Shown piece after piece: positions 3,569 to 57,968 of a DNA stretch of 64,000 nt; the first letter of the stretch is position 1; each line of letters starts with the position of its first letter. The translations under genes were made by a program, and so were the position numbers. The notes beneath the pieces are model-generated. The model was given only the letters and a program-made list of their open reading frames with translations, did no database searches and was not told where the DNA came from. This stretch comes from a virus (lineage: Duplodnaviria; Caudoviricetes), in IMG/VR virus record IMGVR_UViG_3300033066_001787, positions 3,650 through 67,649 of that record. The stretch is one strand, 5' to 3'.

Positions 3569-3966
3569 TGACTACTGAGACAGAAGAAGAGTCTCCTCTG
3601 ACAAGATTGACAAAGGAGCAAGTGATTCAAGCACATTGTAAGATCGGAGCGTTGGTCTATCATTCGATCAGAGATTACTCAGAACCTAACGATGGATTCT
3701 GCTCTGAGTGCGACAAAGTTCTTGCAGAACACAATTGGAATTTCAGGAATTGTGGAGACCTGATCGGGTACATTCGCAGAGCAGTATTGAACCAAATGAA
3801 ACTCGACGGAATCAAGATCAGTCCACATTTCTCTACTGAAACAGGAGCACTGAACGAAGATGCCAAAGATCCAGCAGAAGCTATCGTGGCAGCAGCACAA
3901 AGTAAAATGGAGCAACTGTACCCTGTGCGATCTGAGCTGTCACCGGAACAAAGTGGTGTTGGCTAG
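3565..3966 (+). CDS. hypothetical protein
   Basis: Tiled ORF with ATGA overlap and RBS. Confidence 0.55.
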   Translation: MMTTETEEESPLTRLTKEQVIQAHCKIGALVYHSIRDYSEPNDGFCSECDKVLAEHNWNFRNCGDLIGYIRRAVLNQMKLDGIKISPHFSTETGALNEDAKDPAEAIVAAAQSKMEQLYPVRSELSPEQSGVG

Positions 3967-4459
3967 AGGAAATCTTCCATGTGACATCTTGTTCGTGAGT
4001 GAGTCTCCTGGAACTACTGAGAACACTCGAGGACAGTCATCTATCGGACCTGCTGGTCAGTTGCTGGACCAGATGATCGCTGAGTCGATCTACGCCCACT
4101 CCACTGGCTGGAGAGTCGCGTTCACCCAGCTGGTGGCTTGCATGCCGAAGGGGACTCCAGGAACTAAGGCCGCACATGATATAACTAAGAAGCAGATCGA
4201 ATCATGCCGACCTCGTCTCGTGGAGTTCGTCCAGATCGCCAAGCCGCAGCTGATCATCAGGATGGGAAAGCTCGTGGAGAAGTTCATTCCCAACCAAGAG
4301 ATGTTCACCGGGCCGACGAAGCTGGAGCACCAGATACAGTTCGTCGACATGATTCATCCAGCGTCGATCTTGAGAGCAGACGTCTCTCAGAAGGCCCTGG
4401 CGTACCAGCGTTGCGTTGTGACGCTGTCTGACGCTGTAGAACAACTCGCACCATTCTAA
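3860..4459 (+). CDS. family-4-like uracil-DNA glycosylase (Fe-S), divergent active site
   Basis: CTLC, RGN..CDILFVSESPG..E..G...IGPAGQLL, LVACMP, ESCRPRL, MIHPA. Confidence 0.8.
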   Translation: MPKIQQKLSWQQHKVKWSNCTLCDLSCHRNKVVLARGNLPCDILFVSESPGTTENTRGQSSIGPAGQLLDQMIAESIYAHSTGWRVAFTQLVACMPKGTPGTKAAHDITKKQIESCRPRLVEFVQIAKPQLIIRMGKLVEKFIPNQEMFTGPTKLEHQIQFVDMIHPASILRADVSQKALAYQRCVVTLSDAVEQLAPF

Positions 4460-9137: not shown

Positions 9138-9350
9138 ATGCCAAGAGTTGGAGAATCTTCTGCGGTCATTTTAGCAAGGAAGCTCGGAGTCAAGAACAAG
9201 AAGCTACTGGCCAAGAAGATTCACAACATGAAACTCGCCTGGCAATATGCTCCTGCTGAGTTCTACTCTGAACCAAACTACAACAACAGCGGGATGACTC
9301 CCAAGCAATACTATGATACTCACGCCAAATTGTTAAAGGACTGGAAATAG
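9138..9350 (+). CDS. small basic hypothetical protein
   Basis: ORF whose stop overlaps the polA start. Confidence 0.6.
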   Translation: MPRVGESSAVILARKLGVKNKKLLAKKIHNMKLAWQYAPAEFYSEPNYNNSGMTPKQYYDTHAKLLKDWK

Positions 9351-11353
9351 TGCAGAGAATCTCTTGTGATACTGAGACAACAGGAAGCGACTTTCAGCAC
9401 AGTTCCAAACCATACTTCATCACAATCGCTGAAGAAGATGGCACACAGTACTTCTGGGAAGCAGATGTCGATCCGGTCACTAGAGAGCCTGATTGGGATC
9501 GAGAAGACCTTGCCGATGTTGAAAAACGGCTGCGAGAGGCCGATGAGGTAGTCTTTCAGAATCCCAACTTCGACGTGCGAGCGTTGATCACCATCATCCC
9601 GAGTCTCAAGGATTGGGACTGGTCTAAGACTCGTTGTACGCTTCTGGCCGACCACCTCATCTGCTCATCTAGACGACATGATCTCACGACTCAGGCGCTG
9701 GTCTACCTTGGAGTGGACATCCAGCCGTTTGAGGATCGCGTGGAGAAGGCTACACAAGACGCTCGTCGGTTCTGCAGATCTAAGCTCAAGGATTGGTTGA
9801 TCGCGAAGAAGGGAAATCCTGACATGCCGAGTCTCACTGAGGAGGCTTGGAAGGCAGACATGTGGCTTCTCAGAGCAGTCGCAAAGAACGAGAACTACGC
9901 TGAGGACCATCCATGGTGGACTCTGCTGGCCGACTACGCGAACACTGACTCCGCGGTCACTCTTCCGATCTATCTTGAGCAGATGAAGCTTCTCGAGAGC
10001 CGAGGTCTGTGGAAGATCTATGTCGAGCGACTCAAGACTCTCAAGCACAGATACTCGTTGGAGACTGTTGGACTGCCGGTCAACGAGGCTCGCATGAACG
10101 AGCTGAAGAAGAAATACACTGAGGAGTCAAAAGCCGCCGGAGAGATCTGCAACAATATCGCAGAATCTTACAATGGCTACCAGTTGATCCTGCCGAAGAA
10201 CGGGCTGAACAAGAACCTGACGACGTTCATGTTCGATGAGATGAAGCTTCCTGTCGTCAAGACTACAGACAAAGGAGCTCCTAGCTTTGACAAGTTCGCA
10301 TTAGACACCTACATGTCGACGCTTCCTGAGAGAGGAAAAGAGCTCACGTTCATCAAGGCGTTGAAGGGTAAGCGCAGTCGAGACACTGCGCTGGGATTCA
10401 TGGAGAGCTACCGACGCTACTGGCTGAAGCTGAAGGGCTCGTGGAGAGTGTTGTATCCGTCTCTGAACGCGACTGGGACGAGGACTCTGCGATGGAGCAG
10501 CAAAGGTCCAAATGAGCAGCAGATCAGCAAGAAAGAGGACTTCAACCTGCGCTACATGTTCGGGCCGTTGCCTGGACGCGAGTGGTGGAGTCTCGACTAC
10601 CAGAACATCGAGCTGAGGATACCTGCCTACGAATCTAACGAGCGGGTGATGATCGATCTTTTCGAGAAGCCAGATGAGCCTCCGTACTTCGGCAGCAACC
10701 ATCTGTTCAGTGCGTCGGTAGTGTACCCAGAGGTGTTCTGGCCGATCGCTGACCAGAAAGGTCTGTTCAAGAAGAAGTACGCGAGCACTTACTACGGCTG
10801 GATCAAGGGATTCAACTTCGCTTTGCAGTACGGCGCGATCGAGAAGTCTGGAACTGCCGACAGAGCGGCGAGACGAAAAGGAGCGCAGGCCGCAGTGCAG
10901 AAGCGCCTGAAGGAGGCGTCTCGTCTCAACCAGCATTACATCGACATGGCGAATCGGCTCGGCTATGTGGAGACGATACCAGACAGTGAGATCTGCCCAG
11001 AGCGAGGGTATCCTCTGTACTGTGAGAAGAACAAGTACGGAAAGGTGCTGGAGACTGTGCCGCTCAACTATCATGTGCAGGGCACCGCGTGCTGGGTCAT
11101 GATGAGAGCCATGGACAAAGTTCAAGATTATCTCGATCAGGTCAACGCGGAGTGTCCTGGGCACGCCATGGTGCTCCAGGTTCATGACGAGCTGATCTTC
11201 GATTTTCCTCAGAGAGCTAACATGGGGAATCTTCCTAAGATCAGAAAGATAAAGAGGATCATGGAGGAGATGGGGACGTTCATCAATGTTCCATTGACAG
11301 TTGGGGTGGAGTATCATCCTGACAATTGGTCTGAAGGTGTGGCTATTCATTGA
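9350..11353 (+). CDS. polA: family A DNA polymerase with 3'-5' exonuclease
   Basis: Exo I CDTETTG, Exo II NPNFD; motif A SLDYQNIELR, motif B KGFNFALQYG, motif C QVHDEL; GTG start. Confidence 0.95.
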   Translation: MQRISCDTETTGSDFQHSSKPYFITIAEEDGTQYFWEADVDPVTREPDWDREDLADVEKRLREADEVVFQNPNFDVRALITIIPSLKDWDWSKTRCTLLADHLICSSRRHDLTTQALVYLGVDIQPFEDRVEKATQDARRFCRSKLKDWLIAKKGNPDMPSLTEEAWKADMWLLRAVAKNENYAEDHPWWTLLADYANTDSAVTLPIYLEQMKLLESRGLWKIYVERLKTLKHRYSLETVGLPVNEARMNELKKKYTEESKAAGEICNNIAESYNGYQLILPKNGLNKNLTTFMFDEMKLPVVKTTDKGAPSFDKFALDTYMSTLPERGKELTFIKALKGKRSRDTALGFMESYRRYWLKLKGSWRVLYPSLNATGTRTLRWSSKGPNEQQISKKEDFNLRYMFGPLPGREWWSLDYQNIELRIPAYESNERVMIDLFEKPDEPPYFGSNHLFSASVVYPEVFWPIADQKGLFKKKYASTYYGWIKGFNFALQYGAIEKSGTADRAARRKGAQAAVQKRLKEASRLNQHYIDMANRLGYVETIPDSEICPERGYPLYCEKNKYGKVLETVPLNYHVQGTACWVMMRAMDKVQDYLDQVNAECPGHAMVLQVHDELIFDFPQRANMGNLPKIRKIKRIMEEMGTFINVPLTVGVEYHPDNWSEGVAIH

Positions 11354-11365
11354 GAGGAGAGTCAG

Positions 11366-12214
11366 ATGACAGAGTTTGCGGCGAGAGTGGAGAAGGACAG
11401 CATCAGCAACGCAGGCAGGCGGTTGATATCGATGGTGGTGACTTATCCGAGGATCATTCACTCTGAAGTGATGACACATCGAGCGTTCGCGAGGAACGCG
11501 AGCTCGTCGAGGGCGATCCCTTTCTCGAAGATGGTCGACCAGGTGATCACGTCGCCGTTCGTCCCGATCAAGTGGGGAGCGGAGCAGAGAGGGATGCAGA
11601 CTGGAGACTCATTGTCAGAGATGGCCGAGATCAAGTGTGAGACGGCCTGGCTGAGGGCGAGAGATCACGCGGTGTGGATGGCCAAGGAGATGCATTCTCA
11701 GGGGCTGCACAAGTCGATCTGCAATCGAGTCCTCGAGCCGTACTCCTGGATCACTGTCGTCATCACGGCGACTGAGTGGTGCAACTTCTTCAGGTTGAGG
11801 TGTCATCCTGACGCAGAGATCCACCTGCAGAAGATCGCCGGAATGATGAGAGACGCGATCAAGAAGAGCTCTCCTGAGTTCGTCCCTTTTGGAGAGTGGC
11901 ATCTGCCGTTCATCGACCAGGCTGATCTGGATACTCCAGGGATCACCGAGGATGATCTCTCTGCCATCTCGACCGCCAGGTCAGCGAGAGTGTCATATCT
12001 GACCCACGATGGTCTCAGAGATCATTCTAAGGACCAAGAGCTGTTCCATAAGCTCGTCACCGGCAGCGGCTTCGGGCACTATTCTCCGCACGAGCACGTG
12101 GCGACTCCTCTGGAGAATCCATACGAGGCTTCTGGGCCATTCAGAGGATGGAGACAGTTCAGAAAGAACTTCGTGTTGGAGAACGCCGAGACGCCGATCA
12201 AGTACTCTCCGTGA
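11366..12214 (+). CDS. thyX: flavin-dependent thymidylate synthase (phage-type ThyX)
   Basis: SEVMTHRAFARNASSSRAIP, NRVLEPY, FFRLR.H..A..H, HYSPHEH. Confidence 0.88.
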   Translation: MTEFAARVEKDSISNAGRRLISMVVTYPRIIHSEVMTHRAFARNASSSRAIPFSKMVDQVITSPFVPIKWGAEQRGMQTGDSLSEMAEIKCETAWLRARDHAVWMAKEMHSQGLHKSICNRVLEPYSWITVVITATEWCNFFRLRCHPDAEIHLQKIAGMMRDAIKKSSPEFVPFGEWHLPFIDQADLDTPGITEDDLSAISTARSARVSYLTHDGLRDHSKDQELFHKLVTGSGFGHYSPHEHVATPLENPYEASGPFRGWRQFRKNFVLENAETPIKYSP

Positions 12215-12287: not shown

Positions 12288-12743
12288 TCACTCGAGGTTG
12301 TTCTTCGCTCCACTCTTCGTCAAGTAGAAAGCTGCTCCCTTGACACCCTCGACAGTTCCTTGTCCGACGAATCCACCGGTCTGCAGTTTTCCCTTGGACC
12401 ATACGGCGCAGTACGCGTCGAACTCGCTCAGCTTCGCGGCTGCGGCGATGGACGCGACGTTGACGCCGCTGAGAGGAGAGGTGGCTCCAAGCTTACGGAG
12501 TCCGGCGAGCGCCATATTGCATCGCTCTGTAGGGGTCTTGCTCGTGTCGGTCTTGCGCTCGACTGCTCCGTTCGTGGCGGCTTTCTTAGCAGGCTTTGTT
12601 TTGGCGGCGACTTTCTTCGCTGGCTTGACGGTCTTCTTCACAGCTTTCTTGGCCGATGCCACAGCCTTGACTGCAGCTTTCTTCACGACTTTCTTGACGG
12701 TGGCGGTTGGCTCGGTGGCGACGGCGGTCTCGAGATCAGACAT
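12288..12743 (-). CDS. histone H1-like Lys/Ala-rich DNA-binding protein with C-terminal winged-helix-like domain
   Basis: KKAAVKAVASAKKAVKKTVKPAKK repeats; GGAG RBS; own promoter and terminator. Confidence 0.7.
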   Translation of the reverse strand: MSDLETAVATEPTATVKKVVKKAAVKAVASAKKAVKKTVKPAKKVAAKTKPAKKAATNGAVERKTDTSKTPTERCNMALAGLRKLGATSPLSGVNVASIAAAAKLSEFDAYCAVWSKGKLQTGGFVGQGTVEGVKGAAFYLTKSGAKNNLE

Positions 12744-13037: not shown

Positions 13038-14159
13038 ATGCATCTGACATATAGGAACGCGAACGAGGCGTTCATCGAGTTGGTCGAGCGATTCGCGATA
13101 GCGGATGACATCATCAGGTCTGGAAAAGCATGGACGCCTTTCTCCAAGAAACCTTCCCGCGTTGGAGAGGTGATCCAGATCGACGAGCCAGTCATCATCA
13201 CGTTTGAGAAACCCCGAGAGCGAGTCCTGTTCAACCAAGAACGAGACTGCAATCCATTCTTTCACGTGTTCGAGACTCTTTGGATGCTTGCTGGTCGAAA
13301 CGATATCGCATCATTGGAGTATTACTCGTCTGGGTACAAGGCTCAGGTGGATGACGGAGATGGAGTTGCCAACGGAGCATACGGGTATCGGTGGAGAGAA
13401 TCACATGCGTTTTTTATCAATAACTCTGCAGAATGGGATGAAAGATACATTGATCAACTCAAGATCATCATCGATCATTTGAAGAAAGTTCCAAATTCTC
13501 GTCGTGCAGTTCTCCAAATGTGGAACGTTCAAGATGATCTGCGTAAGATTGGCCCAGAGAACCAGTCGAAAGATGTCTGCTGTAACACTGCTGCGTACTT
13601 CTCTCTGAGGAAAACACAAGAGGATATTCCGGGCGTATTGTCACAACAACCCTTCAACATAACATACCTTGACATGACGGTCACCAACCGTTCCAATGAT
13701 CTGATCTGGGGATTGCTAGGAAGTGATCAAGTCAACTTGTCATTTCTTCAGGAGTACATCGCCAACTGCCTGGGAGTCCAAGTTGGTAAGTACAACCAGA
13801 TGAGTAACAATCTTCACGTCTACACTGAGAGGTTCAAGCCAGAGCAATGGCTGAGTTGGGTTCCTGATGGAGCTCAAGTGTACGAGGACAATCTGAGGTA
13901 TTATCCTCAGCTAGTGCAGAATCAAGAGACGTTCGACAAAGAAGTCATTGGGTTCTGCAATAACATCGAAGGACCGTGGAGAGAACCATTTCTTCAAGAT
14001 GTTGCTCGGCCGATGTGTATGGCGTTCGCTGCACACAAGAGTCGACATTATGACGTCGCGATCAACGTTCTCATGAACGAAGTCGCCGCCCATGACTGGC
14101 GCATCGCCGGAAAAGACTGGTTGGCTAAGCGACGACAAGCATGGGAGGCGAAGCAATGA
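13038..14159 (+). CDS. thymidylate-synthase-fold pyrimidine hydroxymethylase, predicted dCMP-specific
   Basis: GAYGYRW, DQL, SRRAVLQMW, KDVCCNT (catalytic Cys), NRSNDLIWG..GSD, SNNLHVY; AGGAG RBS. Confidence 0.85.
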   Translation: MHLTYRNANEAFIELVERFAIADDIIRSGKAWTPFSKKPSRVGEVIQIDEPVIITFEKPRERVLFNQERDCNPFFHVFETLWMLAGRNDIASLEYYSSGYKAQVDDGDGVANGAYGYRWRESHAFFINNSAEWDERYIDQLKIIIDHLKKVPNSRRAVLQMWNVQDDLRKIGPENQSKDVCCNTAAYFSLRKTQEDIPGVLSQQPFNITYLDMTVTNRSNDLIWGLLGSDQVNLSFLQEYIANCLGVQVGKYNQMSNNLHVYTERFKPEQWLSWVPDGAQVYEDNLRYYPQLVQNQETFDKEVIGFCNNIEGPWREPFLQDVARPMCMAFAAHKSRHYDVAINVLMNEVAAHDWRIAGKDWLAKRRQAWEAKQ

Positions 14160-14545: not shown

Positions 14546-14770
14546 ATGAAAAAACAAACTAAATCTTGTAATTGTATTGAGGACTGCAACAAAGAGCTCG
14601 CAAAACAAGGATTGAAACTTGATACAGATTTTGAGTTCAATTTTACAACAGGTCAAGCAAATCTTGCTATCAGTATCAAGACTAAAAAGTTGCCAACAAA
14701 CACGAGTAGAAAGAAACCTTTAGTCTTAGCCTGTTCCTATTGTCCCTTTTGCGGAAAGAAGCAACGATGA
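14546..14770 (+). CDS. small Cys-containing hypothetical protein
   Basis: CNC...YCPFCG; AAGGA RBS. Confidence 0.6.
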   Translation: MKKQTKSCNCIEDCNKELAKQGLKLDTDFEFNFTTGQANLAISIKTKKLPTNTSRKKPLVLACSYCPFCGKKQR

Positions 14771-15174
14771 AGACTTGGGAAGAAGACTTGATGGACCTGC
14801 ACGCTAAGTTCGGCGTGGGAGCTATTGTGGAGAAGATGCCACCTGACGTGCTGAAGGCGTTCTTGGAGTTCAGGAAAGACTTCATAGCGGAAGAGTGCAC
14901 TGAGCTGCGCGATGCCACCACTGCAGACGGAGTTGTCGACGCGTTGATCGACCTATGCGTGGTCGCGGTAGGGACGCTGGAGGCGTTCAACGTGGACGTG
15001 GAGGAAGCTTGGAGGCGAGTCCATGAGAAGAACATGCAGAAGCTGGCTGGAGAGAACTCTGGCCGCAAGAACGCGTTTGGATTCCCTGATCTTGTGAAGC
15101 CTCAAGGATGGACTCCGCCAGATCACAGAGACAACGTTGGACTCCTCTCATTGATATTTGACGAAAGTAAATAA
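14767..15174 (+). CDS. MazG/PRA-PH-like all-alpha NTP pyrophosphohydrolase
   Basis: AEECTEL, VVDALIDL, AWRRVHEKNMQKL, LVKP.GW.PP. Confidence 0.8.
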   Translation: MKTWEEDLMDLHAKFGVGAIVEKMPPDVLKAFLEFRKDFIAEECTELRDATTADGVVDALIDLCVVAVGTLEAFNVDVEEAWRRVHEKNMQKLAGENSGRKNAFGFPDLVKPQGWTPPDHRDNVGLLSLIFDESK

Positions 15175-15560
15175 TGAAGCACTCAGAGTACGCTGATCAT
15201 GTGAAGAAGTTCACTGACGAGATGATCGACACGACGTCGAAGAAGAACCCAGATTACTCAGCCGGCACTGAAGACGCGATGGGGAACTACTACGAAGTCT
15301 CCAACGCGACAGGAGTCACTCCAGTGCAGGCCTGGATGGTGCTGTTGATGAAGCACTTCACCGCCATCATGAGATTCACGAAGACAGGGATGGTGTCGTC
15401 AGAGGCGATCCACGGGCGGTTCATCGACCTCGCCAACTACGCGATGCTTGGAGATGCGTTGGTGAAAGACATGATAGAGAAAGGACTGACGAATGCCAAA
15501 GATACTGTTGGTCGGGGAGAGGATGAACTACACTCCGCCGCAGGCGAGAAAGTATCCTGA
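15174..15560 (+). CDS. DUF1599-like nucleotide-modification-associated protein
   Basis: KKNPDYS, W..L.MKH..AI, SE.I.GR..DLANY. Confidence 0.7.
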   Translation: MKHSEYADHVKKFTDEMIDTTSKKNPDYSAGTEDAMGNYYEVSNATGVTPVQAWMVLLMKHFTAIMRFTKTGMVSSEAIHGRFIDLANYAMLGDALVKDMIEKGLTNAKDTVGRGEDELHSAAGEKVS

Positions 15561-15990
15561 CTATTCATCAGATGATTACTGGAGGATCATGCTGAGGCTT
15601 CAGGCATTCAGAGACAATAGATCAAGGACGAAGCTGAGGAGGATAGGGATAGATCTCAGCTGCATCGAGGTGTTCTCGACGATCAACATCTTGCCGCCTG
15701 CTGGATCGAAAGTTCCATGGAGTCCTTCAGACGCGACGACGGTGATGTCGAGCTGGAGACCTAGACTCAAGGAGTTCGACGTGACGGTCTTGTGTGGAAG
15801 GAGAGCGGCCGAGGCGTTCTCCAGGAGGCTGTTTGGTAGAATGGAGGACTCTTGCGGAAGATTGAAGATCATCGACGGTCTGCGAGTGATGATGATCCCA
15901 CATCCGTCAGGACTGAATCTGTGGTGGAACGACGACTTACAAGTTCGAGAGCTCAAAGAGAGGGTAGAGGAATGCCTAGAGTTGGTTTAG
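15493..15990 (+). CDS. divergent UDG-superfamily protein
   Basis: ILLVGE, INILP, VLCGRRA..AF, IPHPSGLN.WWN. Confidence 0.65.
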   Translation: MPKILLVGERMNYTPPQARKYPDYSSDDYWRIMLRLQAFRDNRSRTKLRRIGIDLSCIEVFSTINILPPAGSKVPWSPSDATTVMSSWRPRLKEFDVTVLCGRRAAEAFSRRLFGRMEDSCGRLKIIDGLRVMMIPHPSGLNLWWNDDLQVRELKERVEECLELV

Positions 15991-16820
15991 ACACGTCGCC
16001 GAAGAAGAGGGCCAGGCATCTTGTCGCAGACGAGCCAGAGTGCAAGCACGGTCCTCGAGAGCAGCAGGCTCTACGACGCCACGATGAGGGAGACTACGAC
16101 AAGACTGATCTCGATAGCAAGAGCCACGGTAAGATGGTCCACCGTGACTATGCAGCTCACTACTTCAGGTGGGGATGGGCGGCGAACTTCTGCAGCAAGA
16201 AGCGAGTGCTGGACTACGGCTGTGGAAAGGAGCAGCCGCTGGCGCGAGTATTGACAGACTTCAACTACCCGTCGCTATATCTTGGACTGGACTTGAACAA
16301 GCTAGACGAGTGGAGCGCTCCATGGAAGAAGGTCAAGGCAGGAGTCGATCTGTGCGCCGCTGGAACTCCTCCGATGATCATCAAGGACTACGGCAAGTTC
16401 GACGTCGGAGTGTCGTTCGAGGTGATCGAGCATGTCCCATTTGACAAGCAGGAAGTCTACCTGAAGAACCTGTCGAAGTGCGTCTCTGACGATGGCATGA
16501 TCTTGTTGTCGACGCCGGTCTATTCCCCAGGGAAAGGCATGGCGAAGAACCACATGTCAGAGCTGATGGTCGATGAGATCTTCTCGTTGGCTGAGATCTG
16601 TGGTCTGGAGGTGGTGAATCGCTATGGCACGTTCGCTGACTACACCTCGTGGAAGAACGCCTTGAAGAATTCTTTATCCTCAGAGGCGTGGGATGAATTG
16701 TGGCCGATTCTTCAGAACGTTGGAGAGTTCTACTCGACGACTGTACAGTCTAACTGGTGGGCTCCGGCGTTTCCTGACATCTCGAGAAACAACGCGTGGA
16801 TCTTCAAGAAGAAAGATTGA
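15972..16820 (+). CDS. class I SAM-dependent methyltransferase
   Basis: HRDYAAHYFRW, VLDYGCG, SFEVIEHV, LLSTP. Confidence 0.85.
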   Translation: MPRVGLDTSPKKRARHLVADEPECKHGPREQQALRRHDEGDYDKTDLDSKSHGKMVHRDYAAHYFRWGWAANFCSKKRVLDYGCGKEQPLARVLTDFNYPSLYLGLDLNKLDEWSAPWKKVKAGVDLCAAGTPPMIIKDYGKFDVGVSFEVIEHVPFDKQEVYLKNLSKCVSDDGMILLSTPVYSPGKGMAKNHMSELMVDEIFSLAEICGLEVVNRYGTFADYTSWKNALKNSLSSEAWDELWPILQNVGEFYSTTVQSNWWAPAFPDISRNNAWIFKKKD

Positions 16821-17056: not shown

Positions 17057-17259
17057 TCGAGTATAACCGGGGTGAACCTGAAAAACCTGGAGTCTACGCT
17101 TGTCGAATCCCTGACGATAACTTCTCTGGAACAACAGACTGGTGTAAAGATGTGTTTCTGGTGTGGATTGATGACAGGTGGGGATTTCCTGGTTCAGACC
17201 AAAACTACAGAGGAGAGGTCGTTGGTTGGATTGGTCCATTACAAAGGTCACATAAGTAA
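17026..17259 (+). CDS. hypothetical protein
   Basis: GGAG RBS; P..PGVY...W.GP Trp-rich motif; stop overlaps primase start. Confidence 0.55.
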   Translation: MPKVGESKELVEYNRGEPEKPGVYACRIPDDNFSGTTDWCKDVFLVWIDDRWGFPGSDQNYRGEVVGWIGPLQRSHK

Positions 17260-19472
17260 TGCCTAAGGTCTCAAAAGATTTGCCTGATAGTCTTCGGGTA
17301 TACAACTTTCACGGATTGGATTTAAACTACAGAGAAGGAGAGAAGAATGCCACTTGCGATTGCATGTTCTGTGGACGGGAAAACAAGTTTAACATTCTGG
17401 TGGACACGGGTCAGTACCGATGTGTGGTATGCGGAGTCTCCGGCAATCAGTATGTTTTCATTCGTGAGCTGATGAGGTTGTCCGATGAAGCGACTACAGA
17501 TTATGTCTCTCTCGCTGAAGATCGCGGTCTTGCTCTGCCTGATTCAATTATTGTTTGGGGATTAGTCAAGTCTATATTGACTGATGAGTGGATGATCCCT
17601 GGATACGGGATGGACGGCAAGCTTCACCAGCTCTATCGTTATTTCGGAGTCAAGGGAAAGAGACGGATGATCCCGACGCCGACGTTGGGTCATCAGTTGT
17701 TTGGTCTCAATCTCTTCGACAAGGACAAGTCGACGATCGATCTCTTGGAAGGCCCATGGGACGGTCTTGCGTTCTACGAGATGCTCGCCAACGTCAAGTA
17801 TGAGGATGGATACTCACTCACTGCTAATGCGCAATCATCGTTGCTCTCTGACCGGAATGTTCTAGCGATCCCTGGTGCTGGTACGTTCTTTGAGACGTGG
17901 GTGCCTTTGTTCGCTGATAAGGTGGTGAATCTCTGGTGCCAGAATGATCATGTCAAGACAGCGGAGAACGGTCAGATCATCCCGTCAGCCAGCTACGAGG
18001 GGATGAAGCGGATAGCGAGGATGCTGCTGTCGTCTGACCATCCTCCGCTAGAGATCAACTATCTCTCTTGGGGCGAGAACGGGTACACTGAGGAGCTTCC
18101 TCATGGATTTGACATTCGAGACGCTCTAGGAGCTAACGGGAGAGCTCTAAGATCGCGTCTAGAACCATTCGTTGAGATATTTGACCAGATCTCCACGATT
18201 CCAGCCGAATGGTCAGAGAAATCAACCTCGATGACCAGGGATGGTAAGAAGGGTACGAAGAGGAAGCCGGAGGAGCTAGAGCTAGTTCCATGCTCAGACT
18301 GGAAGACTCTGATCAACGCCTGGAAGAAGGCTTTGAAATGGACTGACGGCCTGGACGTTGCTCTGTCCACAATGCTGTCAGCGATCGCCTCTACTGAGGC
18401 TGTTGGAGATCAACTGTGGATCGAGATCATCTCTCCAGCAAGCTCTGGAAAGTCGGTGTTGTGTGAAGCAGTCTCTGTCAACAAGAAGTATGTTTTGGCC
18501 AAGAGCACGATCAGAGGATTTCACTCTGGGTTCGGCAACGGAGACGAGGACAACTCTCTGCTGACGCTGGCCGCCAACAAGACGCTGGTGACCAAGGACG
18601 GCGACACGTTGCTGCAGTCTCCAAATCTCGGTCAGATCTTGGCCGAGGCGCGAGACGTCTATGACACGGTGTCTAGGACGCACTATCGCAACAAGCAGAG
18701 CAAGAACTACGAGGGGGTCCGCATGACGTGGATTCTCTGTGGAACAGCGTCGTTGCTGTCTCTGGACACGTCTGAGCTTGGTGAGCGCTTTCTCAAGTGC
18801 ATCATCATGGACGGCATCGATGATGATCTGGAAGACGAGGTGCTCATCCGTAGTGCTCACAGTGAGGTGGGAAAGATGAAGATGCAGTCAGGGATCGACG
18901 CGAGCACCAAGGAATCAGAGGAGATGATTCAGGCCAAAGCTCTCACAGGTGGTTACATCAACTACTTGAGAGAGAACTTCTTCGACTTGCTGGCTGGAGT
19001 CGAGATCAGTGATGATGTCTTGTGGAAGTGTACTCGTTATGGCAAGTTCATCGCGTTCATGCGAGCGAGACCCTCGACGAAGCAGGCGGAGCACTCAGAG
19101 CGTGAGTTCGCCGCTCGTCTCGTCAAGCAGATCATACGTCTGATGCAATCCACGGTGATCGTGCTGAACCAGCAGTGCGCTACTGACGAGGTGATGCGAA
19201 GAGTGAAGAAGGTGACTCTGAACACGTCTAGAGGGATCGTGCTGTCGATCGTGACGTACATGTACTATCTCGACGAGGACACTGGAGCGACCAACTCTAT
19301 GATCGCGGTGATGGTCCACAAGACTGCGGATGAGATCAGGCACATGATGAAGTTTCTGCGACATATCGGAGTCGTGGAGGCGTTCACGACCACAGATGAC
19401 AAGACGCGTCCAACGGCGCAGTACAGACTGACTCACAAGCTTCGAAAACTTTATAAGGAGGTGATGGGATGA
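17259..19472 (+). CDS. primase-helicase: Zn finger + TOPRIM + MCM-like AAA+ + winged helix
   Basis: CMFC...CVVC; LLEGPWDG; SPASSGKS; GERF Arg finger; R.VKQIIRL sensor-2-like; C-terminal HTH. Confidence 0.75.
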   Translation: MPKVSKDLPDSLRVYNFHGLDLNYREGEKNATCDCMFCGRENKFNILVDTGQYRCVVCGVSGNQYVFIRELMRLSDEATTDYVSLAEDRGLALPDSIIVWGLVKSILTDEWMIPGYGMDGKLHQLYRYFGVKGKRRMIPTPTLGHQLFGLNLFDKDKSTIDLLEGPWDGLAFYEMLANVKYEDGYSLTANAQSSLLSDRNVLAIPGAGTFFETWVPLFADKVVNLWCQNDHVKTAENGQIIPSASYEGMKRIARMLLSSDHPPLEINYLSWGENGYTEELPHGFDIRDALGANGRALRSRLEPFVEIFDQISTIPAEWSEKSTSMTRDGKKGTKRKPEELELVPCSDWKTLINAWKKALKWTDGLDVALSTMLSAIASTEAVGDQLWIEIISPASSGKSVLCEAVSVNKKYVLAKSTIRGFHSGFGNGDEDNSLLTLAANKTLVTKDGDTLLQSPNLGQILAEARDVYDTVSRTHYRNKQSKNYEGVRMTWILCGTASLLSLDTSELGERFLKCIIMDGIDDDLEDEVLIRSAHSEVGKMKMQSGIDASTKESEEMIQAKALTGGYINYLRENFFDLLAGVEISDDVLWKCTRYGKFIAFMRARPSTKQAEHSEREFAARLVKQIIRLMQSTVIVLNQQCATDEVMRRVKKVTLNTSRGIVLSIVTYMYYLDEDTGATNSMIAVMVHKTADEIRHMMKFLRHIGVVEAFTTTDDKTRPTAQYRLTHKLRKLYKEVMG

Positions 19473-20353
19473 GACAGCTATACATCAAAGACTGGAGCGA
19501 CAGTGCAGGGTTGACAAGCTTCAACTTTCCAGACGGTCAACCTCATGTCAAATACGGCAGAGCAGCAGAGCTTTCTCCTGGCGAGGGTATCCTCATTCGC
19601 TGTCGTATCGCCTCCTCGGACGATCTTCTCAAGCTTGGTATGCTTTGTGAAACTCTGAGGAACAAGTCTATCGGATGCTTCGTGACGATCACGTACTTGA
19701 TGGGAAGTCGCATGGATCGGCGAAACAGCAAGAGTGAGCCTTATTCTCTGATGGTGATCGCAAATCTTCTCAACTCGATGGGGATCGGCGGAGTATCAGT
19801 GTTCGTGCCGCACTCGTCATCCACGAGAGATCTGTTGGACAACTACGACGAGACTTATTGGGAGTACATTGAGAAAGGATTCTACCAGCGAGCGATCACT
19901 GCGATATTTGACAAGGAGTTTCCTGGCAAGATCACAGAAGACTACAGCATCGTGTATCCTGACTACGGGGCAAGCAAGAGATTCGGAGACATGCTGAAGG
20001 GATTTCAAGCAGATGAGGTCACGCTTGTCAAGACTCGGGAGCAGACGACAGGCAAGATCACGGGCATGAAGTTGCTTGACGGAGAGGTCCAAGAGACCTG
20101 CATCATCGTCGACGATCTCTGCGACGGTGGCAGAACGTTCGAAGAAGCTTCAAAGCTGCTGAGGATTCTGGGAGCTAAGAGAGTTCATCTCGTGGTCGCT
20201 CACGGCATCTTCTCGAAGGGGGTCCATCTACAAGGGATCGACAGTATCCACACGACAGACTCTTACAAGACCAAAGAAGACTACATGGAAGATTCTTTGT
20301 ATTCCGTGGTCGGCAACAATTTCCACGTCCACTCACTCTTTGAAGGCAACTGA
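19469..20353 (+). CDS. prs: ribose-phosphate pyrophosphokinase-like protein (candidate ADPR-PP synthetase, Adps)
   Basis: FPDGQPHV, YLMGSRMDR, VYPDYGA, IIVDDLCDGGRTF. Confidence 0.88.
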   Translation: MRQLYIKDWSDSAGLTSFNFPDGQPHVKYGRAAELSPGEGILIRCRIASSDDLLKLGMLCETLRNKSIGCFVTITYLMGSRMDRRNSKSEPYSLMVIANLLNSMGIGGVSVFVPHSSSTRDLLDNYDETYWEYIEKGFYQRAITAIFDKEFPGKITEDYSIVYPDYGASKRFGDMLKGFQADEVTLVKTREQTTGKITGMKLLDGEVQETCIIVDDLCDGGRTFEEASKLLRILGAKRVHLVVAHGIFSKGVHLQGIDSIHTTDSYKTKEDYMEDSLYSVVGNNFHVHSLFEGN

Positions 20354-20356
20354 TCA

Positions 20357-21832
20357 ATGTTGTTTCCTATCTCACCGCTGTTGTTGCTCGACGGTTACAA
20401 GACCGATCATCGTCGTCAGTATCCTGAGGGAACAGAGCAAGTCACCTCAAATCTCACTCCTCGCAAGTCCAGGATCGATGGATTTGATGAGGTCGTGTTC
20501 TTCGGCAACCAGTACTTCTTGCAAAAATACCTCATCGATGACATGCGAGAAGAATTCTTCGACCAAGATGAGAGCTACGTTGTAGATAAATACCAGGCAG
20601 TGATGGATCAGTACCTTGGTATGAATTCAGTCTCAACGAAGCATATCGCAGAGCTTCATCAGCTGGGGTATCTTCCTCTTGAGATCCGAGCATTGCCAGA
20701 AGGGACTCGCTGTCCAATCGGAGTGCCGATGCTGACGATCGAGAACACTGATCCAAGATTCTTCTGGCTCACGAACCAGCTTGAGACGCTGTTGTCGTGT
20801 TGTCTGTGGAGTCCCTGTACGGCTGCTACTTTGGCCTACCGATACCGAAAGACGTTTGACAGGTACAACCTACAGACAGGGATTCCATTCGAGCTTGGTA
20901 AGTACCAAGGACATGATTTCTCGTTCCGTGGAATGAGTTCTGTCGAATCGGCGTTGACGGCTGGAGCAGGTCACTTGACCTCGTTCGCAGGTACGGACAC
21001 GATACCGACATTGTTGTTCATCGAGGAGTACTACAGCTCAGGTCTGCGCCACAGTGATTTGATCGGTTGTTCAGTCCCTGCTACGGAACACTCGGTGATG
21101 TGCATGGGAGGGATGGAGAACGAGATCGAGACGTATCGACGGTTGATCACGAAGGTCTATCCAACAGGCATCGTGTCGATCGTGTCAGACACCTGGGATT
21201 TCTGGTCGTTGATGACGATCGGTCTCGACGCTCTGTACGACGACATCGTGAAGCGGCAAGGCAAGGTGGTGTTCCGTCCAGACAGCGGTGATCCGGTCAA
21301 GATCATCTGTGGTGATCCAGAAGCAGCTCCAGGCAGCGCAGCTTGGAAGGGAGCGTTTCAGCTCTTGTGGGACAAGTTTGGAGGAACAGAGCACCAAGGG
21401 TTCAAGCATCTCCACCCCAAGGTCGGGCTCATCTACGGTGACTCGATCACGCCGGAGCGTCAAGAGGCGATCCTTGGAATTCTCTCTCAGAGAGGTTTTG
21501 CGCCAAACGTCGTTCTTGGTATCGGCTCTTACACTTACCAGTACAAGAGCAGAGACACATTCGGGTTCGCTGTCAAGGCGACTCACGGTGTCGTCGACGG
21601 AGAAGACAGGATGATCTTCAAGTCACCAAAGACTGATCCAACAGGGGAGAAGAAATCTCTCAAGGGCAGGGTTGGAGTGTTCGTGGAGAACAACAAGATC
21701 GTCGTGAGAGACCAGCTGAGCCTGAAAGAATCTAGAACAGGACTACTCAAGCAAAAATTTTGTAATGGCAACATGACTCACCGTGAGAGTCTAGCCGATG
21801 TTCGATACCGACTACATGGGGAGAGCTTCTGA
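20357..21832 (+). CDS. nadV: nicotinamide phosphoribosyltransferase-like protein (candidate Namat)
   Basis: DGYKTDH, HDFSFRG, PATEHSVM, SIVSDTWD, RPDSGDP, IYGDSIT. Confidence 0.92.
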   Translation: MLFPISPLLLLDGYKTDHRRQYPEGTEQVTSNLTPRKSRIDGFDEVVFFGNQYFLQKYLIDDMREEFFDQDESYVVDKYQAVMDQYLGMNSVSTKHIAELHQLGYLPLEIRALPEGTRCPIGVPMLTIENTDPRFFWLTNQLETLLSCCLWSPCTAATLAYRYRKTFDRYNLQTGIPFELGKYQGHDFSFRGMSSVESALTAGAGHLTSFAGTDTIPTLLFIEEYYSSGLRHSDLIGCSVPATEHSVMCMGGMENEIETYRRLITKVYPTGIVSIVSDTWDFWSLMTIGLDALYDDIVKRQGKVVFRPDSGDPVKIICGDPEAAPGSAAWKGAFQLLWDKFGGTEHQGFKHLHPKVGLIYGDSITPERQEAILGILSQRGFAPNVVLGIGSYTYQYKSRDTFGFAVKATHGVVDGEDRMIFKSPKTDPTGEKKSLKGRVGVFVENNKIVVRDQLSLKESRTGLLKQKFCNGNMTHRESLADVRYRLHGESF

Positions 21833-56065: not shown

Positions 56066-57066
56066 TGAACGTTGGAGCATTCGTTTATTGTACGACACAG
56101 GGGTTGGGCATCTTGGCCAAATCCTTCTTTGACAACGGAGTAGTCAACAAACCCTGTATTCACCTCCACCACTGCAGGAAGAACAACACTCACTGGTATC
56201 CAGAAGGGACTCCCCGAATTGACAAACGTCTCGGGTACAGGATCGCTCACGAGTGGCTGAAGACGATCGACGTGCTGCTGGTGTTTGAGACTCCTTTTGA
56301 CTGGACTCTTATTCCTACAGCGAAGAGACTCGGCATACCAGTCGTCTTCATGCCGATGTACGAGTGCACTCCTCAAGTGATGCCTCATGAGCCTGACCGT
56401 TGGATCTGTCCTTCCGTGTTGGACTATGACTACTTCAAGAGCAAGCCAGACTGCAGGTACATCCCAGTGCCGGTGAGCGTGCCTTGGAAGCTACGAACTG
56501 AGGCAAAGGTATTCGTCCATAACGCAGGCAACGGAGGGCTGCTAGGACGCAATGGAACGAGAGAGCTCGTCAATTCCCTCAAGTACATCAAGAGCGATGC
56601 GCAGATCATCATCAGGGGCCAAGAGTTCAACGAGGAGTTTGAGAATGAGATTGCCAAAGTCTCATCCAATGTCGACGTTCACTACTCATCAGGCACGATC
56701 CCCTATGACAAGCTTTGGGAGGACGGAGATGTCTTTGTGTTCCCCGAGAAGTTCAACGGGCTGTCTCTTCCTCTTCAGGAAGCACGAGCGGCAGGAATGG
56801 CTGTTGCTGCTACTGATCGTCGTCCAAACAATCTCTACTTGCCACTGAGACACCTCATCCAGGTCAGCGGATACAACCGAGCGAGAGTGGGAGTGAGCTA
56901 CCTTGAGTTTGATGAAGCAATCGTCAACCCTCTTCACATCGCTAACAGGATCGATGAGATGTATGGTCAAGACATCTCGGATGTCTCCTACTCAGGCCAG
57001 GAGTTTGCCAAAACCTACTCTTGGGAAAACTTGAAACCTCAGTACATGGAGGCTTTCTCACTATGA
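56065..57066 (+). CDS. GT-B glycosyltransferase (GT4-like)
   Basis: VHNAG.GG...RNG, DVFVFPEKFNGLSLPLQEA.AAG.AV..TD. Confidence 0.85.
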   Translation: MNVGAFVYCTTQGLGILAKSFFDNGVVNKPCIHLHHCRKNNTHWYPEGTPRIDKRLGYRIAHEWLKTIDVLLVFETPFDWTLIPTAKRLGIPVVFMPMYECTPQVMPHEPDRWICPSVLDYDYFKSKPDCRYIPVPVSVPWKLRTEAKVFVHNAGNGGLLGRNGTRELVNSLKYIKSDAQIIIRGQEFNEEFENEIAKVSSNVDVHYSSGTIPYDKLWEDGDVFVFPEKFNGLSLPLQEARAAGMAVAATDRRPNNLYLPLRHLIQVSGYNRARVGVSYLEFDEAIVNPLHIANRIDEMYGQDISDVSYSGQEFAKTYSWENLKPQYMEAFSL

Positions 57067-57968
57067 AAATTCTCTACATTGCCAAGCATACTCCTTGTGA
57101 TAATGAAGACGAGATTGCTATTGCCTATGCTCTGGAACAACTTGGCCATGAAGTACTAAGGATTCAGGAATTCAATGGACACAACGCTCTCGCTCATCGT
57201 GCTGACTTCTGCTTGTTCCATAAGTATGACAACTACGAGGTCATTGAGGCTGTCTCTAAGCGTGTTCCAACCATCTGCTGGTTCTTCGACAAAGTCAAGT
57301 TTGACGAACCAAAGCTGGCAGCCAGGAGCGAGCTGAGAGTCAACTGGATGGAGCAGATCACTAAGTTCTGTCACACTATCTTCTGCACGGATGGAGACTG
57401 GGTTGACCAAGATGAGTCAGGAAAGCTCTGCTGGTTGATGCAGGGAGCGGATGAACGTTATGTAGGGTTTGGAGAGCCTAACCAACAGGTTGCTCCGATC
57501 CTCTTTACAGGAACTCCTCGACACGGACAGCAGCGAGAAGACCATATTGCTCATTTGCAAGAACGTTGGGGTGATAGGTTCCAGGTGTTAGGGGCAGGAG
57601 GCAATAAGAGCAGGAAGCACGGTCGAGAACTCGCAAACATCATCGCCAGCTCTAAGATCATCATCGCTCCAGACGGTCCAAGCACTGATCGATACTGGTC
57701 AAATAGGGTCTACCTCATCTCTGGGTTTGGCGGTCTGCTGCTGCATCCTCACTGTTCAAATCTCAGACACCACTACAGTTCAAAAGAAGTTCTGATGTAC
57801 GCCGATCGAGACCATCTTGACGACATGATCGAGATCTTCTTGGACATGGACAATTCAAAGTTGCAAGAGATCAGGGTCAATGCTTACGAGAGAACTCTCA
57901 AGGACAATCTCTATCGTCATCGGTGTGAGCAGCTGGTCAATACCTTCAAGGAGCGAAGCAAATGGTAG
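57063..57968 (+). CDS. GT-B glycosyltransferase (CgeB/DUF3880-like)
   Basis: ILFTG, L...IASSKI.I, SNRVY...G.GG.LL. Confidence 0.8.
   Translation: MKILYIAKHTPCDNEDEIAIAYALEQLGHEVLRIQEFNGHNALAHRADFCLFHKYDNYEVIEAVSKRVPTICWFFDKVKFDEPKLAARSELRVNWMEQITKFCHTIFCTDGDWVDQDESGKLCWLMQGADERYVGFGEPNQQVAPILFTGTPRHGQQREDHIAHLQERWGDRFQVLGAGGNKSRKHGRELANIIASSKIIIAPDGPSTDRYWSNRVYLISGFGGLLLHPHCSNLRHHYSSKEVLMYADRDHLDDMIEIFLDMDNSKLQEIRVNAYERTLKDNLYRHRCEQLVNTFKERSKW

Follow-up and report, generated by a model that had tools for sequence, protein, structure and literature searches.

A predicted dCMP 5-hydroxymethylase within a phage family of dUMP hydroxymethylases

Which pyrimidine is acted upon by the thymidylate synthase (TS) homologue of an uncultured siphovirus-like phage, and with what chemistry, is the question raised by the open reading frame (ORF) at 13038-14159 of the DNA analysed here. 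This DNA (the window, 64,000 nucleotides) comprises bases 3650-67649 of the IMG/VR record IMGVR_UViG_3300033066_001787, which is 67.6 kb in length and estimated to be 95% complete; coordinates are window positions, and L, G and P identifiers denote related loci, records and proteins, respectively. The initial annotation had described a hydroxymethylase-type TS homologue with Asp at the pyrimidine-specificity position and had predicted that genomic cytosine is modified. We estimate a probability of roughly two in three that the gene encodes a folate-dependent deoxycytidine monophosphate (dCMP) 5-hydroxymethylase (5hmdCMP synthase), which would have arisen inside the M6/PaMx11-type family of deoxyuridine monophosphate (dUMP) hydroxymethylases by loop remodelling. 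Taken separately, a preference of the enzyme for dCMP appears quite probable, and substantial replacement of cytosine in virion DNA is given close to an even chance and no better. The ORF and the stretches of it on which the argument turns are as follows:

13038-14159, plus strand: predicted dCMP hydroxymethylase, an Asp-type homologue within the M6 family of TS-fold pyrimidine hydroxymethylases (PF00303, phrog_5131)
13572-13583, plus strand: catalytic motif D179-V-C-C182
13689-13700, plus strand: R218-S-N-D221 motif
13722-13739, plus strand: specificity loop S229-D230-Q-V-N233-L234, which stands where the family has A-N-x-V-H-F

The ORF encodes 373 amino acids, with AGGAG located 7 nt upstream of its ATG. 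The protein was matched to PF00303 in a Pfam scan (70.4 bits against a cut-off of 24.3, E 1.8e-19) and to phrog_5131 over residues 37-372 (E 1.2e-84). Its nearest cultured relatives, at approximately 37% identity, are the enzymes of the Pseudomonas phages M6, YuA and PaMx11, which are dUMP hydroxymethylases that start thymidine hypermodification (PMC8989533). The top solved relative identified by sequence using HMMER is MilA (E 1e-10), and the closest folds to the AF2 model (pLDDT 86.6, pTM 0.89) are MilA (TM 0.76-0.77 over the full chain) and then E. coli TS, both at a Foldseek probability of 1.00. The 120 closest metagenomic homologues, which are 43-59% identical to the protein, comprise 112 with Asn (Asn-type) and eight with Asp (Asp-type) at the site of E. 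coli N177, the closest among them (P0002, 56-59% identical) being Asn-type. By these comparisons of sequence and modelled fold, the ORF product is a TS-fold member of the M6/YuA/PaMx11 pyrimidine-hydroxymethylase family.

Three sites are diagnostic of substrate and product in such enzymes (PMC13326640): the N177 site holds Asn where dUMP is used and Asp where dCMP is used, the L143 site is hydrophobic in enzymes that transfer methyl and acidic in those that form hydroxymethyl, and the D169 site holds Asn in 5-hydroxy-dCMP synthases of the RB69 gp48/DLP3 gp80 type. Additionally, base preference was switched by N-to-D replacement in TS and by D-to-N replacement in T4 gp42, according to the passage of PMC8670742 in which this mutagenesis is cited. 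In the present phage, 13689-13760 encodes RSNDLIWGLLGSDQVNLSFLQEYI (R-S-N-D-L-I-W-G-L-L-G-S-D-Q-V-N-L-S-F-L-Q-E-Y), with Asp230 specified by GAT at 13725-13727. The earlier assignment of Asp230 to the N177/D179 specificity site was borne out by sequence and profile alignments, on which this equivalence is based: S229-D230 was paired by HMMER with the S-D of MilA, D230 was paired by the same program with the Asn of the bacterial thymidylate synthase 6auj, and hhalign of the family profile placed D230 on N177 of E. coli ThyA (probability 97.7) and on D179 of T4 gp42 (probability 80%, E 1.5e-5). A pairing of D230 with T4 D193 obtained using MAFFT was discarded and the hhalign register preferred, since MAFFT misplaced T4 gp42 because of an insertion there.

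The catalytic residue named in the initial annotation, Cys182 (codon 13581-13583), is likewise present and aligns to C146 of the E. coli enzyme. Three residues before it, Asp179 occupies the E. coli L143 site in the MAFFT columns, the same place being filled by D-V-A-C in MilA and by D-F-M-C in T4 gp42 (D145/C148); hhalign against E. coli ThyA moves this stretch by one residue, and the Asp179/L143 equivalence therefore rests on the gapless register. The motif R218-S-N-D221 corresponds to E. coli R166-S167-C168-D169, and since Asp is kept at the D169 site (D221) the enzyme is not of the D169N type of the 5-hydroxy-dCMP synthases. Furthermore, C182, R155/R156, R218 and S219 are invariant and match E. 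coli C146 and the nucleotide-phosphate ligands R126/R127, R166 and S167, and the H260/Y262 pair is intact. Asp230, Asp179, Asp221 and Cys182 together constitute, as far as alignment can tell, a complete dCMP-hydroxymethylase signature.

The family consensus given for this loop in the initial annotation proved correct, as the motif at the N177 site reads G-A-N-x-V-H-F in 112/120 of the closest homologues, with Asp in the other 8/120; the loop of this phage reads G-S-D-Q-V-N-L. Among 101 columns that are each at least 93% conserved in the 112 Asn-type relatives, the protein deviates at four (A229S, N230D, H233N and F234L), all of which fall within the 229-234 loop, and the divergence is thus concentrated in the base-reading loop. 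A sequencing slip at a single base would not account for the simultaneous difference at four adjacent positions. Ala229, Asn230 and His233 are each found in 112/112 Asn-type proteins, A229 and H233 are altered in seven of the eight Asp-type proteins, and all four changes are common to the group formed by L006, P0030, P0033 and P0035. This distribution of changes is, on the conserved columns, that of a hydroxymethylase that has been remodelled and is not decaying.

With the loop masked, a single clade of all eight Asp-type proteins was rejected (delta lnL 377, p-AU 0.0001 in the approximately unbiased (AU) test). One origin for the present protein and the P0030/P0033/P0035 (L006) group was not rejected (AU p 0.31), and no convergence is therefore claimed between these two. 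By parsimony, approximately six changes were counted, or 11 with more loci included, of which the starred branches force three to six, a number that depends on the tree. As a separate observation on the family, P0003, P0033 (L006:8669-9991), P0063 and P0097 contain a Cys-rich CxxCxGxG insert of the DnaJ-zinc-finger type in the loop that immediately precedes the catalytic Cys, that of P0097 having a precomputed PF00684 match; the insert is found in Asn-type as well as Asp-type proteins.

The ORF sits within a replication and nucleotide module in the order PolA, ThyX-family gene, minus-strand Lys/Ala-rich ORF, TS homologue, two small Cys-rich ORFs, MazG-like gene, DUF1599-like gene, a gene weakly resembling uracil-DNA glycosylase (UDG), S-adenosylmethionine (SAM) methyltransferase and primase-helicase:

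9350-11353, plus strand: family A DNA polymerase PolA, which marks the shared replication module (43-49% identity to the PolA of relatives)
11366-12214, plus strand: divergent ThyX-family flavin-dependent thymidylate synthase (PF02511, phrog_85)
14740-15174, plus strand: DR2231-type all-alpha MazG-like nucleoside triphosphate (NTP) pyrophosphohydrolase (PF01503)
15174-15560, plus strand: DUF1599 ('nucleotide modification associated domain 1') protein (atlas feature score 0.97)
15493-15990, plus strand: weakly UDG-superfamily-like protein (PF03167, below cut-off)
15972-16820, plus strand: class I SAM methyltransferase (PF13489 at 6.7e-12)
17259-19472: primase-helicase

The identity of PolA spans the same range with Asn-type and Asp-type relatives alike. 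Gene content was compared in 50 IMG/VR records of relatives, 49 Asn-type and one Asp-type (L006), with 17 near-complete Asn-type genomes; additionally, a DNA pattern specific to the Asp-type loop recovered eleven further loci, G051 among them. A tblastn search with the ThyX of this phage missed even the ThyX of L006, and profile searches with a positive control were used instead. The PF02511 profile detected ThyX in 0/49 Asn-type records and 0/17 near-complete Asn-type genomes, and detected it in L006, in G051 (a 101-kb Asp-type record with the loop GEDYCTF) and in this genome, which served as the positive control; a profile of the divergent ThyX itself matched this genome only and nothing in the Asn-type relatives. 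ThyX had been suggested at the outset as an independent source of deoxythymidine monophosphate (dTMP), and this suggestion is strengthened by its occurrence, among relatives, only with Asp-type enzymes, the gene being divergent nonetheless.

Conversely, the helical domain of the 5-hydroxymethyldeoxyuridine (5-hmdU) DNA kinase (HMUDK; PF18723) was identified in 40/49 Asn-type records and in 17/17 near-complete ones, and was not found in this genome, L006 or G051. The amino-acid:DNA transferase ADDT (PF18724) is present in the Asn-type L014, in which the HMUDK helical domain, a kinase, ADDT, an FAD oxidoreductase and a GNAT gene lie between PolA and the enzyme; it was not found in the present 95%-complete genome. 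The DR2231-type MazG-like profile matched 0/48 Asn-type records, its only matches being in the Asp-type records G002 (the record of L006) and G051. The Asp-type cassette has the form PolA - TS(D) - ThyX - MazG-like - (DUF1599 or P-loop deoxynucleoside monophosphate (dNMP) kinase) - dCMP deaminase - UDG-like, varying subsets of which occur in L006, L085, L089, L092, L093 and L094. Residue type and gene content associate cleanly across the sequences compared. In MetaGPA (PMC8670742), TS, PF01503, dCMP deaminase and MafB19 deaminase domains co-occur specifically on cytosine-modified contigs, and Asp177 is enriched on contigs selected for modified cytosine.

This association bears on the possibility that the protein is still a dUMP hydroxymethylase in which Asp230 is tolerated, such that the phage would make 5-hydroxymethyluracil (5hmU) as its relatives do. 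Its membership of the family is clear from phrog_5131 and from the identity to M6, its nearest homologue P0002 is Asn-type, and two Asp-type loci retain a thymidine-type context. These loci, L086:787-1752 (Ga0208162_1034421) and L090:7778-8551 (Ga0099849_1002475), have the loop GADCVHF, in which the Asn-type Ala, His and Phe are kept, and adjoin in M6 order a 5-hmdU-kinase-like gene, a YfbR-like 5'-deoxynucleotidase, PolA and a dCMP deaminase. Two explanations may be offered: that a change of base requires more than Asp in these enzymes, or that there is a cytosine pathway, or a cytosine hypermodification, in which a kinase takes part. Asp alone is therefore not always paired with loss of the thymidine pathway, and because of these two loci the whole loop and the gene context outweigh the single residue. 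In the present phage, A229 and H233 are replaced, unlike in L086/L090, the 5-hmdU DNA kinase and ADDT that are universal in complete Asn-type genomes were not found, and ThyX, seen in none of the 49 Asn-type relatives, would compete for dUMP; furthermore, the N-to-D and D-to-N swaps cited above change base preference. We consider a retained dUMP specificity distinctly improbable.

Alongside L086/L090, several points weigh against the dCMP hydroxymethylase that we favour. A single origin with the L006 group may mean that part of the association between residue and genes is shared ancestry. Neither a dNMP kinase nor a dCMP deaminase was found in this 95%-complete genome, in which there is no PF02223 match and the only two Walker A motifs are both in other ATPases; of the related Asp-type loci, L006 and L093 do encode a dNMP kinase. 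T4, for its part, needs gp1. Incorporation of the modified nucleotide was only trace without the cognate kinase (PMC13326640), and, since the phage encodes no dNMP kinase, it is uncertain whether cytosine is replaced in full. The ThyX is divergent and its activity is assumed. Finally, among solved structures the MazG-like protein comes closest to DR2231, a dUTPase, and a dCTPase role for the phage protein is therefore only a guess.

The lack of an encoded kinase that would take the product to the triphosphate also touches on a further reading, in which the protein is a relic or has a non-DNA role (for instance on cytidine monophosphate (CMP), like MilA) after loss of thymidine hypermodification and gain of ThyX. 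The top solved relative MilA is indeed a CMP enzyme, and the terminal branch of the protein is long (1.0 against a median of 0.64). Set against this, the protein retains the family residue at 97/101 conserved columns, among them those of the catalytic Cys, of the Arg residues that bind phosphate and of H260/Y262, the gene has a proper ribosome-binding site and lies within the replication and nucleotide module, and the same loop and cassette are kept across several diverged phages. Such a relic or ribonucleotide enzyme is hardly credible.

The neighbouring genes add detail to the dCMP-hydroxymethylase reading. ThyX was identified with PF02511 (40.9 bits in the Pfam scan, 32 bits in the genome search) and phrog_85 (2e-61); approximately 70 N-terminal residues are missing, the RHR motif reads THR, a large C-terminal insertion is present, and no solved relative was found by sequence at E 0.01. 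Identity to its counterparts in other Asp-type loci is only 17-22%, and the gene lies on the opposite side of the hydroxymethylase from theirs; this divergence and position suggest that the pairing is functional and not merely inherited. The protein would be the source of dTMP. The MazG-like protein matches PF01503 (2.4e-9) and, by profile, DR2231 (2e-12), with no detectable relation of its profile to T4 gp56; homologues that are 52-59% identical adjoin the Asp-type enzyme in L006, L085, L089, L092, L093 and L094, and one that is 39-40% identical occurs in L087. A role as dCTP and/or dUTP pyrophosphatase is predicted. L087 is itself unusual: in its Asp-type enzyme (P0038, L087:2308-3366) the L143 site is filled by Ser (D179S) and the loop reads GSDCVCF, and the MazG-like gene precedes that of the enzyme. 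The chemistry of the P0038 product may differ.

The DUF1599 protein was recognised by its atlas feature score to DUF1599 clusters, the Pfam match reaching only E 0.054; its model is poor (pLDDT 69) and Foldseek returned nothing below E 1. Homologues in L085:1392-1700, L089:666-974 and L094:2807-3115 are 65-69% identical, which exceeds the conservation of the hydroxymethylase, and none was found in the loci of 80 relatives or in the cultured phages of the collection. Among the Asp-type loci compared, it is the most conserved partner in the cassette. The slot that it fills between the MazG-like gene and the dCMP deaminase is occupied in L006 and L093 by a P-loop dNMP kinase, and DUF1599 might, on a speculative reading taken up below, be a missing component of the route to 5-hydroxymethylcytosine (5hmC).

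Downstream of these genes, the UDG-like protein (PF03167 at 7.6e-4) has no solved relative by sequence; in L085 and L092, homologues of approximately 30% identity follow the deaminase. The replication arm contains two UDG-superfamily genes, the other of which (3860-4459) is clearly family-4-like (5.9e-16) and also occurs in the Asp-type loci L006 and L092. The SAM methyltransferase has no homologue in the Asp-type loci and no solved relative by sequence, and its membership of the pathway is doubtful since it is not shared with those loci. The SAM methyltransferase and the UDG-like gene, placed directly downstream, are nevertheless what may be expected if the enzyme used dCMP to give another C5 product (such as 5-methyl-dCMP, as in XP12-type phages) or if the base were tailored by neighbouring genes, in which case unaltered 5hmC would not be the end product; this is in keeping with the name of DUF1599, 'nucleotide modification associated', and its tight conservation in the cassette, and with the unexpected chemistry, namely 5-hydroxylation, reported for TS homologues (PMC13326640). 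A hydroxymethyl product is likelier than a methyl one in view of Asp179 at the L143 site and of the hydroxymethylase clade to which the enzyme belongs, Asp and not Asn is found at the D169 site, the methyltransferase is absent from other Asp-type loci, and no carbamoyltransferase is encoded in the genome. A glycosyltransferase cassette at 55-60 kb was considered as a 5hmC glycosylation system and put aside, as homologues occur in Asn-type relatives but not in G051, which is Asp-type; its glycosyltransferase at 57021-57968 is 43-47% identical to homologues in the Asn-type G003, G013 and G023, and this tail-end sugar cassette is therefore not tied to base-modification type. Another C5 product or a tailored base is judged rather unlikely. 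Of the original prediction that cytosine is replaced by 5hmC, 5-methylcytosine (5mC) or a related base, the cytosine-directed hydroxymethylase is thus favoured by the sequence tests, with 5hmC likelier than 5mC; the replacement of all cytosine is the part that is uncertain.

For a dCMP 5-hydroxymethylase, the following route may be envisaged. Cys182 would add to C6 of dCMP, as in TS-family chemistry, and the methylene of methylenetetrahydrofolate (CH2-THF) would be passed to C5. Where an Asn reads uracil in other members of the family, Asp230 would recognise cytosine through N3 and the 4-amino group, and Asp179 at the L143 site would admit water, the attack of which on the exocyclic methylene would yield 5hmdCMP. 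Monophosphates would probably be supplied from dCTP and/or dUTP by the MazG-like enzyme of the DR2231 type, which would also remove competing triphosphates. Since dUMP would no longer be drawn off into 5hmdUMP, ThyX would make the dTMP of the phage. The step from 5hmdCMP to the triphosphate would fall to kinases of the host or to a phage function that has escaped recognition, and incorporation of the modified deoxynucleotide by the phage PolA, which would need to accept it, would result in virion DNA with 5hmC or a derivative. Of this account, the residues, fold, family placement and gene associations are what the data show; substrate, product, the part played by the MazG-like protein and the extent of replacement are inferred. 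More speculatively, base choice may have flipped several times between uracil and cytosine within one hydroxymethylase clade, through the Asn-to-Asp change, loss of the Ala and His, and exchange of the partner set, with the invariant His acting as a second uracil determinant and DUF1599 as the missing part of a 5hmC route of the non-T4 kind; this wider proposal is doubtful.

Two further features of the region were noted. The ORF at 12288-12743, between ThyX and the hydroxymethylase, is the sole minus-strand ORF of the replication arm and encodes a Lys/Ala-rich product of 151 amino acids with histone H1-like AKKA/KKAV repeats, for which Pfam and PHROG searches gave no match. At 19469-21832 of the window, a Prs-like gene (PF00156/PF13793) adjoins a Nampt-like gene (PF04095/PF18127), neither of which was found by tblastn within approximately 10 kb of the TS homologue in 80 related loci.

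That TS homologues with Asp177 mark cytosine modification is already established (T4, MilA, MetaGPA and RB69/DLP3). What is new, from the comparative data, is that Asp-type enzymes have emerged within the M6-type clade of dUMP hydroxymethylases, that several loop residues, an otherwise invariant His among them, have changed in concert, and that the partner set is cleanly exchanged, with ThyX, DR2231-type MazG-like protein and DUF1599 on one side and HMUDK and ADDT on the other. Predicted 5hmC-type DNA is thereby extended to uncultured siphovirus-like phages of approximately 70 kb, the relatives of which are all thymidine hypermodifiers, and DUF1599 is linked to a defined pathway. The family also offers a natural experiment, as its members combine an almost identical scaffold with different versions of a four-residue loop and different partner genes, such that the determinants of pyrimidine choice are testable by loop swaps. 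As the family proteins are all currently labelled 'thymidylate synthase', a rule for their annotation may be proposed: the loop motif with ThyX/PF01503 would indicate a cytosine pathway, and occurrence with a 5-hmdU kinase a thymine pathway.

In T4, the 5hmC nucleotide pathway consists of gp42, the dCTPase gp56, the dNMP kinase gp1, cd and td. T4 gp42 resembles the present enzyme in its fold, in Asp at D179, in the Asp three residues before the catalytic Cys and in the Asp of R-S-N-D, and the logic of the T4 pathway is matched in the Asp-type L006, which has a hydroxymethylase, an NTP pyrophosphatase, a dNMP kinase, a dCMP deaminase and a thymidylate synthase. However, the relation to gp42 is remote and the clade another one, the enzyme of this phage being approximately 130 residues longer; in addition, the thymidylate synthase here is ThyX and not td, the pyrophosphatase is of the DR2231 type with no detectable relation to gp56, and the genome is without dNMP kinase, deaminase or a trait-linked glucosyltransferase. 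MilA (PDB 5b6d, 5jnh) has, like the phage enzyme, Ser-Asp where the base is read and an Asp at the L143 site. In contrast to the phage protein, which sits in a DNA replication module, it is a bacterial CMP 5-hydroxymethylase of mildiomycin biosynthesis that acts on a ribonucleotide, and the two are approximately 20% identical. The 5-hydroxy-dCMP synthases (RB69 gp48/DLP3 gp80) differ in having Asn at the D169 site, where Asp221 stands here. The TS homologues of MetaGPA (PMC8670742), compared by their description, are alike in Asp177 and in co-occurrence with PF01503 and dCMP deaminase, and their contigs differ from this phage, which has no carbamoyltransferase. The closest system remains that of M6, YuA and PaMx11, with the enzymes of which the protein shares approximately 37% identity over 90-97% of its length (C-terminal helical extension included), the catalytic Cys, Asp at the L143 site, the R-S-N-D motif and a gene position beside PolA and primase. 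Asn185 of M6 is nevertheless replaced by Asp here, and the invariant Ala, His and Phe that flank it by Ser, Asn and Leu, respectively; in place of the M6-type partners (5-hmdU DNA kinase, ADDT/aGPT-Pplase, PLP and radical SAM enzymes), this phage has ThyX, a DR2231-type MazG-like protein and DUF1599.

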